Source: Squalus acanthias
Taxonomy: Eukaryota
Assembly: GCA_030390025.1 (NCBI GenBank)
Contig: CM059436.1
Span: 41,850,001-41,914,000 of the forward strand
DNA: 64,000 nucleotides
Reading direction: 5' to 3'
The notes under the pieces are model-generated. The model was not told the origin of the DNA. It made no database searches and saw only the letters and a program-made list of their open reading frames with translations. Positions 33,651 to 35,097 of the stretch are shown here, piece by piece. Positions within the stretch are counted from its first letter, which is position 1, and each line of letters opens with the position of its first letter. A program made the position numbers and the translations under genes.

Positions 33651-34127
33651 AAAAAAATATTGTCCAGCTTTTCCTAATTGCTTGCCGAGCAGGGAAAGCT
33701 GTAAGAGAATTTTTAAAATTTCACAAGAGCTCTAAGCAACTAGGAAATGTAAAACAAAACCTGAATTCTACAACTCAGCAACCACCGTGCACCACCCAGA
33801 GTGCACATCATTCGTGCCACTCTGTGCTTCCATAAAAAAAATTCACACCATAAAATTAAAAAATGGAATAGTTCACAAAAAATGAAGGAAAGGCAGATTT
33901 GAATTCATGTAGCCCATATTATCTCCATCACAAAGACCGTCTACTTCCACCTCCATAATATCTCTCTTGTCCATTCCTGCCTCAGCCAATCTGCTGCTGC
34001 AAATCCTCATCCATGCTTTTGTTATCTCCATAGTGGTCATGATGCGGAGATGCCGGTGTTGGACTGGGGTGGACAAAAATGAGAAGTCGCACAACACCAG
34101 GTTATAGTCCAACAGTTTTATTTGAAA

Positions 34128-34168
34128 TCACAAGCTTTCGGAGCTTTCGTGGCCCCTTCGTCAGGTGA
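34128..34168 (-). ncRNA. Minimal type I hammerhead ribozyme motif (mirror copy)
   Basis: Identical to 34184-34224 on the opposite strand. Confidence 0.72.
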
Positions 34169-34183
34169 AGGGGCCACGAAACT

Positions 34184-34224
34184 TCACCTGACGAAGGGGC
34201 CACGAAAGCTCCGAAAGCTTGTGA
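34184..34224 (+). ncRNA. Minimal type I hammerhead ribozyme motif
   Basis: TCAC-CTGACGA-A-GGGGC(CACGAAA)GCTCC-GAAA-GC-TT-GTGA: stem I TCAC/GTGA, CUGANGA and GAAA core, 5-bp stem II, palindromic AGCT stem III. Confidence 0.72.
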
Positions 34225-35097
34225 TTTCAAATAAAACTGTTGGACTATAACCTGGTGTTGTGCGACTTCTCATTTTTGTTATCTCCAGCCTTGATTATTC
34301 CAATGCTCTCCTGGCCTGCCTCCCAACTTCCACCCTCCATAAACTTGAGTTCATCCAAAACTCTACTGCATGTATCCTAACTTGTACCAAGTTCCATTCA
34401 CCCATCACCCCTGTGCTCACTGACCTACATTGGTTACCTGTCCACCAACACCTCAATTTTAAAATTCTTATCTTCGTCTTCAAATCCCTCCACTGCCTTG
34501 CCCTCCCTATCTCGGTAACCTCCTCCAGCCCTACAATGCTCCAAGAACCCTGTGTTACTCCAACTCTGGCCTTTTATGCATCTCCCATTTCCATTGCTCC
34601 ACCATTGGTAGTCGTGCCTCCAGCCGTCTAGGCCCTAAGTTCTGGAATTCTCTCCCGAAACCTCTCTGCCTCTCCACCCCTCTCTCTGCTCCTTTAAGAT
34701 GCTCCTTAAGACCTACCTCTTTGACCAAGCTTTTAGTCACCTGTCCTAATATCTCCTTCTTTGGCTCAGTGTCACCATGTGTTAGATTACACTCCTGTGA
34801 AATGCTTTGGGATGTTTTACTACGTCAAAGGTGCTATATAAATGCAAGTTGTTGTGGTGAAGGGAAATAATTCTGCGTTTATGTTTGAAACTAATCTTAT
34901 TTCTAGTCGTATTAATTGATGGGTTTGGCTTTATTGTAGGAATGGCTTGAGACTGGAGTGTGAGGTATGGAAAGTGTTAAACTTTGCATTTTGTTTGAAT
35001 TTTGAAACAAAAAAACAATGCCATCACCCTGGTGTGATATCTTTGTATCTTGGTGGAGTTGGGTGACAGACAAGTTTCCCACATTCTCCTGAAGGCA

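Follow-up and report, generated by a model that had tools for sequence, protein, structure and literature searches.

The locus and its surroundings

The window, by which we mean the whole 64-kb stretch of DNA analysed, contains the large coding exon of PROX1 and, upstream of this gene, a palindromic insert that splits an old LINE-derived repeat. The principal features are as follows.

16265..18028, minus strand: large coding exon of PROX1, given for context (protein matches; ORF 16265–18052, minus)
33922..34860, plus strand: old host repeat corresponding to the 3' part of a LINE and split in two by the insert (paralogues 70–83% identical)
34017..34030, plus strand: left target-site duplication, 14 bp (single in two paralogous host-repeat copies)
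34031..34072, minus strand: one-sided 42-nt tail with which the longer copy ends on its 3' side; its sense strand is AC-rich and finishes with ATG ACC ACT A (other family copies end at 34029–34039 at unrelated flanks)
34073..34170, minus strand: left arm, a 98-nt pseudo-LTR (pLTR) end with its sense on this strand (inverted-repeat search)
34128..34168, minus strand: left-arm minimal type I hammerhead, mirror of 34184–34224, predicted cut between 34132 and 34131 (descriptor)
34145..34181, no strand assigned: small junction hairpin with 15-bp arms and a 7-nt loop, including a CTTC/GAAG stem that could prime a snap-back (sequence and fold)
34171..34181, plus strand: 11-nt spacer, a templated copy of the 5' strand of stem II plus loop II
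34182..34279, plus strand: right arm, a 98-nt pseudo-LTR end with its sense on this strand, the last 6 nt common to the target duplicate (microhomology)
34184..34224, plus strand: right-arm minimal type I hammerhead (descriptor)
34184–34187 with 34221–34224, plus strand: stem I
34188–34194, plus strand: core CUGACGA, followed by an unpaired A at 34195
34196–34200 with 34208–34212, plus strand: stem II, with one G-U pair
34213–34216, plus strand: GAAA; palindromic AGCU at 34216–34219; predicted cut after U34220 (CUU)
34274..34287, plus strand: right target-site duplication

The PROX1 product is most similar to two shark prox1a proteins (98–99%), with rays, skates and chimaera at 92–96%, which identifies the host as a shark; its ATG at 18028 (minus) lies 16.0 kb from the insert. 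By eye, a promoter-like stretch of PROX1 can be recognised at 23270–23620 (minus), where CCAAT-type motifs occur several times alongside a CRE-like TGACGTCA and a sequence resembling a splice donor. A preliminary description of this DNA had placed the insert about 10.5 kb upstream of PROX1; the upstream position holds, and the distance would fit these promoter-like motifs at about 23.3–23.6 kb, as judged by eye.

The host repeat, which from its peptide we take to be an L2, has no match in Pfam. Its paralogues in the window, 70–83% identical, lie at 7033–7645, 53032–53433, 54265–54604 and 33300–33645.

Geometry of the insert

An inverted-repeat search of the 64-kb window returned two arms of 98 bp each (34073–34170 and 34182–34279) with 0 mismatches, which together with the 11-nt spacer GGGCCACGAAA at 34171–34181 form a palindrome of 207 bp. 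The runner-up among perfect inverted repeats of the window, with spacers of up to 30 nt allowed, has arms of just 15 bp; it occupies 46316–46350, with 5 nt between its arms, within a GC-richer stretch. No second copy of the insert was found in the window. The insert is bounded by the 14-bp direct repeat TTTTGTTATCTCCA (34017–34030 and 34274–34287), and because this stretch is present once in two paralogous host-repeat copies of the window, it can be regarded as a true target duplication. The right duplicate begins with TTTTGT, which is also the final 6 nt of the right arm, and a 42-nt extension (34031–34072) separates the left duplicate from the left arm, in the left copy only; the preliminary description covered these bases by its coordinates and left them undescribed.

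The spacer completes GAAGGGGCCACGAAA (34167–34181), the reverse complement of 34145–34159. Within a span of 250 nt, an 11-nt match would arise by chance with a probability of about 1e-4. The earlier proposal that the spacer completes a copy of the ribozyme's own sequence and arose by template switching is supported. The window search likewise confirmed the exact 98-bp arms, the 11-nt spacer, the 14-bp target duplication and one minimal hammerhead per strand, and the paralogues bear out that the target was an old repeat, duplicated at the insertion site, all as first described.

A minimal hammerhead in each arm

The minimal-hammerhead descriptor has two matches in the window, at 34188 (plus) and 34164 (minus), one per arm, against a background of 1 match in 20 shuffled windows. 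In isolation, stems I and II are predicted to form with probabilities of 0.81–0.94. All traits given for minimal hammerheads of Penelope-like elements (PLEs) in the available portions of PMC4209133 are present: the core boxes, the G10.1-C11.1 pair, an additional base that separates positions 9 and 10.1, and a palindromic stem III; the triplet follows the NUH rule (PMC2238771, available portion). The assignment of a PLE-type minimal type I hammerhead to each arm is supported.

The likeness to the motifs in the available text of PMC4209133 extends to the exact form of the boxes (CUGANGA and GAAA), the unpaired state of the base between 9 and 10.1, the 4-bp stem I and the occurrence of opposite-strand pairs; minimal hammerheads on opposite strands are described there at distances of 100–700 bp. 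Stem II differs, having 5 bp with a G-U pair here and 7–8 bp in the Schistosoma families of that paper, and the triplet here is CUU. CUU obeys the NUH rule, although GUC is the best triplet reported in the accessible part of PMC2238771. The extra A after CUGACGA had been described as non-optimal, a view that we do not share: since the PLE traits in the sections available of PMC4209133 are all present, and this base is a conserved one among them, it is a hallmark of the family and no flaw. Sharks are unnamed in the available text and in one supplement of PMC4209133; another of its supplements might list shark motifs.

The Rfam comparison proposed at the outset did not recover the motif. There were 0 matches at the gathering threshold; relaxing the cut-off to an E value of 10 gave 9 matches, with no hammerhead among them. 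Matches to miRNA families fell below the gathering score; they reflect the hairpin and were rejected.

In public shark sequencing runs, the loose-end consensus of the family retains CTGACGA-A together with a compensated, still paired stem II in X1 (19 contigs) and X5 (11 contigs). CTGAGGA-A occurs in the loose ends of X22 (4 contigs), and an altered core is seen in others (12 contigs in X1 and 3 in X20).

The layout resembles the footprint of PLE insertion

The insert combines an inverted, 5'-truncated head-to-head copy, a target-site duplication, a hammerhead inside the pLTR and a one-sided tail, which at 42 nt (48 nt if the 6 nt in common belong to the target) is slightly above the published 30–40 bp. 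This combination is the published footprint of endonuclease-bearing (EN+) PLEs. The available text of PMC8557442 describes PLE insertions with an inverted 5'-truncated copy adjoining the element and a 30–40 bp tail at one end, and that of PMC3846280 describes inverted pLTRs, a 31-bp tail, target duplications of 8–10 bp and small palindromes at the inverted junction that were taken as self-priming. The idea of a special non-autonomous element gives way to a routine footprint. No RT or GIY-YIG frame is attached to the insert here, so that it is by its layout and its hammerhead motif that we assign it to the PLEs.

The closest published layout is that of Pen2/Pen2a of Adineta vaga (PMC3846280, with a scheme in Fig. 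2 of PMC8557442, each as far as available), which shares the head-to-head inverted copy, the single-sided tail, the target duplication and a small palindrome at the inverted junction. In Pen2/Pen2a the tail also reaches the ORF start, and we infer the same here: the ATG ACC ACT A of the shark tail is likely to represent the first codons of the element's ORF, which would fit a pLTR plus tail reaching the ORF start as in PMC3846280. The shark insert differs in having no ORF between its repeats, arms of only 98 nt, a tail of 42 nt rather than 30–40, and a duplication of 14 bp rather than 8–10.

Another comparison is offered by Poseidon PAc of Anolis carolinensis (Frangieh et al. 2024, PMC11167929). 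In the portions available, PAc resembles the insert in having two copy ends a tail-length apart, copy ends in an AC-rich stretch about 100–140 nt beyond the hammerhead, an uncleaved hammerhead kept in both arms, and an AT-rich target. The PAc ORF begins at stem II, whereas the shark insert has no ATG there, and the short arm of the shark insert has a 6-nt microhomology with the target, whereas initiation without homology to the target is described in the accessible text of Frangieh et al. Non-LTR retrozymes (bioRxiv 10.64898/2026.07.22.740005, available portions) are also ORF-less and PLE-derived and carry a type I hammerhead; they are head-to-tail tandems of at least two units, each with a hammerhead, allowing dimer cleavage, whereas the two units here face each other head-to-head and each strand has a single ribozyme.

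Pattern scans for the family end next to an ORF gave 0 matches in metagenome, viral and prokaryote collections, in which shark DNA was not found. A looser 20-mer matched three bacterial-type loci (59–73% GC) over only 20–23 nt, and these were ruled out as chance.

An abundant shark family

The shark family to which this element belongs has a very large number of copies. A 951-bp stretch comprising the insert and the host repeat together is matched by 38,931 contigs in one DNA run of the best-matching organism and by 30,696 in another, and the summed contig depth is highest over the tail and the outer arm. Contigs that bear the tail stop at 34029–34039 against unrelated flanks, and pieces of the tail were found in two further organisms. 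Among the 15 joints listed (of 316), 14 connect left-arm with right-arm coordinates at other positions. Three of these arm-to-arm joints have only 2–9 letters between; for the remainder the intervening letters are given as not known, and some of them may reflect a divergent stem II instead of a different truncation. The spacer itself is crossed by one contig in X1 (depth 5.8), with 3 letters missing (34177–34180), and by none in X5; the X1 contig may come from a different copy that carries a comparable snap-back patch.

No contig among those listed bridges the junctions of this locus. The left-flank contig of X1 ends at 34029, and the left junction is unbridged by the listed pieces in four of four runs. 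A joint from 34030 to 34296 is present in X1 and X5, with sides of merely 25 and 21 letters within a high-copy repeat. Neither observation points to an empty or a filled allele. Two runs guessed to be RNA yielded family pieces only and are uninformative on this locus. X1 and X5 also contain joints of 33939/33946 to 34039/34040, in which a piece of the host LINE is joined to the element tail at other positions. These could be family insertions into other copies of the same LINE, and may be chance because the LINE is abundant.

Formation of the two halves

We propose, with a probability of about 0.62, that the insert is a dead, extremely 5'-truncated stub of an abundant shark PLE, with two head-to-head hammerhead-bearing ends, each produced by extending one of the two nicked target strands on element RNA. 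On the element, 42 nt separate the two outward-facing 3' ends. The copies share their stopping point, CTTC, which lies 2 nt before stem I, and CTTC is likewise found ahead of stem I elsewhere in the family (a loose end of 4 contigs, agreement 0.9). This common stop base (CUUC in the RNA) suggests that an uncleaved template RNA had its 5' end there; this RNA would not have been cleaved by the ribozyme, since both arms retain sequence 5' of the predicted cut.

According to this proposal, the target strands would be nicked in a stagger, 14 nt apart. The left 3' end would start at the end of the tail and copy 140 nt; the right one would start 42 nt further in, aided by 6-nt pairing (ACAAAA with UUUUGU). 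The left cDNA end would fold back on its own CTTC/GAAG stem and be extended by 11 nt; the minimum-energy DNA fold of this end pairs GAAG with CTTC, and extension from that fold yields exactly the spacer. Repair would then join the two halves. Microhomology is absent from the final join, between spacer and right arm, under two-sided priming and a single fold-back alike, so this last join would need end-joining. Experimental precedent comes from the purified Anolis PLE protein, which in vitro cuts each of the two strands and extends them on uncleaved RNA, beginning at two sites that delimit the tail (PMC11167929, in the text available).

As a tentative generalization that we put forward with less than even confidence, PLE mirror halves could arise by priming of both nicks on uncleaved RNA that begins at a fixed base immediately ahead of the hammerhead. 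The finished cDNA end would then snap back by means of a native CUUC/GAAG hairpin, which overlaps the ribozyme core, and so seal the two halves.

A single priming event could produce the same PLE stub and is a less probable route, for which we would allow perhaps one chance in several. The cDNA would run from the tail to the 5' end of the RNA, make an 11-nt snap-back as a false start, re-prime, copy itself into the mirror arm and be captured through the TTTTGT microhomology. In its favour, the arms are identical, the 11-nt patch shows that the cDNA end is able to self-prime, the short arm ends exactly in the 6-nt target match, and Arkhipova et al. took junction palindromes as self-priming (PMC3846280, available portion). 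However, no pairing supports a second priming at 34170 once the patch had been made, and the near-constant tail length across PLE families better fits two fixed RNA starts (PMC11167929, as far as available). One locus cannot tell two-sided priming from a single fold-back, which explains the sequence almost as well. The same is true of the version first suggested, in which the other cDNA jumps back to loop II: it gives the same letters and is indistinguishable at one locus.

Two-sided priming of a truncated PLE can also be set against a distinct palindromic mini-element, non-autonomous and retrozyme- or MITE-like, copied as a 250-bp unit. The insert is ORF-less, with a target duplication and perfect terminal symmetry, and retrozymes do stem from PLE ends (bioRxiv 10.64898/2026.07.22.740005, in part). 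However, the retrozymes of that preprint's available text are head-to-tail arrays, the window holds a single copy, and a unit copied whole is at odds with a spacer covered by just the one incomplete contig in X1, none in X5, and other copies that join their arms at many other positions. We consider this reading very unlikely.

Predicted folding and possible function

On either strand the antisense arm would be transcribed first, and each transcript holds one sense ribozyme. In predicted folds of the whole insert, the ribozyme stems have probabilities of 0.000 on both strands, and the same value was obtained in six of six nascent prefixes. When the ribozyme fold is forced, the energy is −149.6 kcal/mol versus −204.7 kcal/mol for the hairpin, a cost of 55 kcal/mol. 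Since the lone ribozyme comes after its own perfect complement and faces this predicted penalty, RNA crossing the insert is unlikely to be cleaved, and the motifs appear to be silenced by their own hairpin. They would be passengers, with read-through RNA taking the 98-bp hairpin fold instead, so that any transcription of the locus would give a long dsRNA hairpin. The fold computation bears out the preliminary description where it foresaw competition between hairpin and ribozyme, and speaks against its suggestion that the insert could cleave any lncRNA crossing it, the ribozyme being sequestered in both directions. The computed dimer (−18.1 kcal/mol, versus −19.0 kcal/mol for two monomers) points to no thermodynamic drive to dimerize.

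It is improbable that the insert has a function here, whether by cleavage or dsRNA formation in a PROX1-upstream transcript or by altering PROX1 regulation, and we rank this with the mini-element. The core and stems are intact when isolated, the perfect hairpin would reach −205 kcal/mol if transcribed, and a promoter-like region is about 10.5 kb away. Against this, the insert sits in an old repeat, is one member of a very large family and has its ribozyme sequestered in both directions. Furthermore, minimal hammerheads of metazoans show no activity as monomers and little as dimers (PMC4209133; review PMC6765202; portions available of both), and the Anolis hammerhead cleaved only with the element's protein present (PMC11167929, available text).

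Least probable of all is an assembly or library artefact by fold-back chimerism, which would suit the 100% identical arms and the junctions unbridged among the public contigs listed, but a read fold-back yields neither a one-sided tail, nor a clean 14-bp host duplication, nor unbroken host sequence on either side.

Age and significance

The insert is younger than the host repeat. Zero differences in 98 positions bound the divergence of the arms at 3.1% (95%), and the arms of a palindrome may homogenise each other. At 7e-10 mutations per base per generation, a rate measured in another shark (PMC10587355, available portion), this bound corresponds to an upper age of about 22 million generations. 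That the insertion is "very recent", as had been suggested, does not follow from identical arms in so slowly mutating a lineage.

Both the layout (since 2013) and the hammerhead motif are already published. A 19-mer of the arm was not found in the literature searched, nor were the shark family and the two-sided PLE priming model, in a search that covered few subscription papers. As one stub of a very abundant shark family in a published layout, the single locus matters little. It is a clean data point, however, since arms that stop at one base before the ribozyme, together with a templated snap-back spacer, bear on how the inverted ends of PLEs form. If the fixed-start and snap-back reading were true across shark copies, genome data alone would settle the formation of inverted pLTRs, and the ribozyme would not define the end of the integrated RNA. 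For PROX1, the perfect 98-bp hairpin nearby would be of consequence only at a locus that is transcribed or polymorphic.

Other repeats in the window

Two old copies of the host LINE, at 33300–33645 and 33922–34860, are inverted around the insertion site with 70–74% identity, and the young palindrome thus lies within a loose, older inverted pair. Elsewhere, 60118–63610 consists of nested LINE fragments on both strands, including a frame at 60910–61341 (plus) that matches Pfam RVT_1 with an E value of 7.6e-08.
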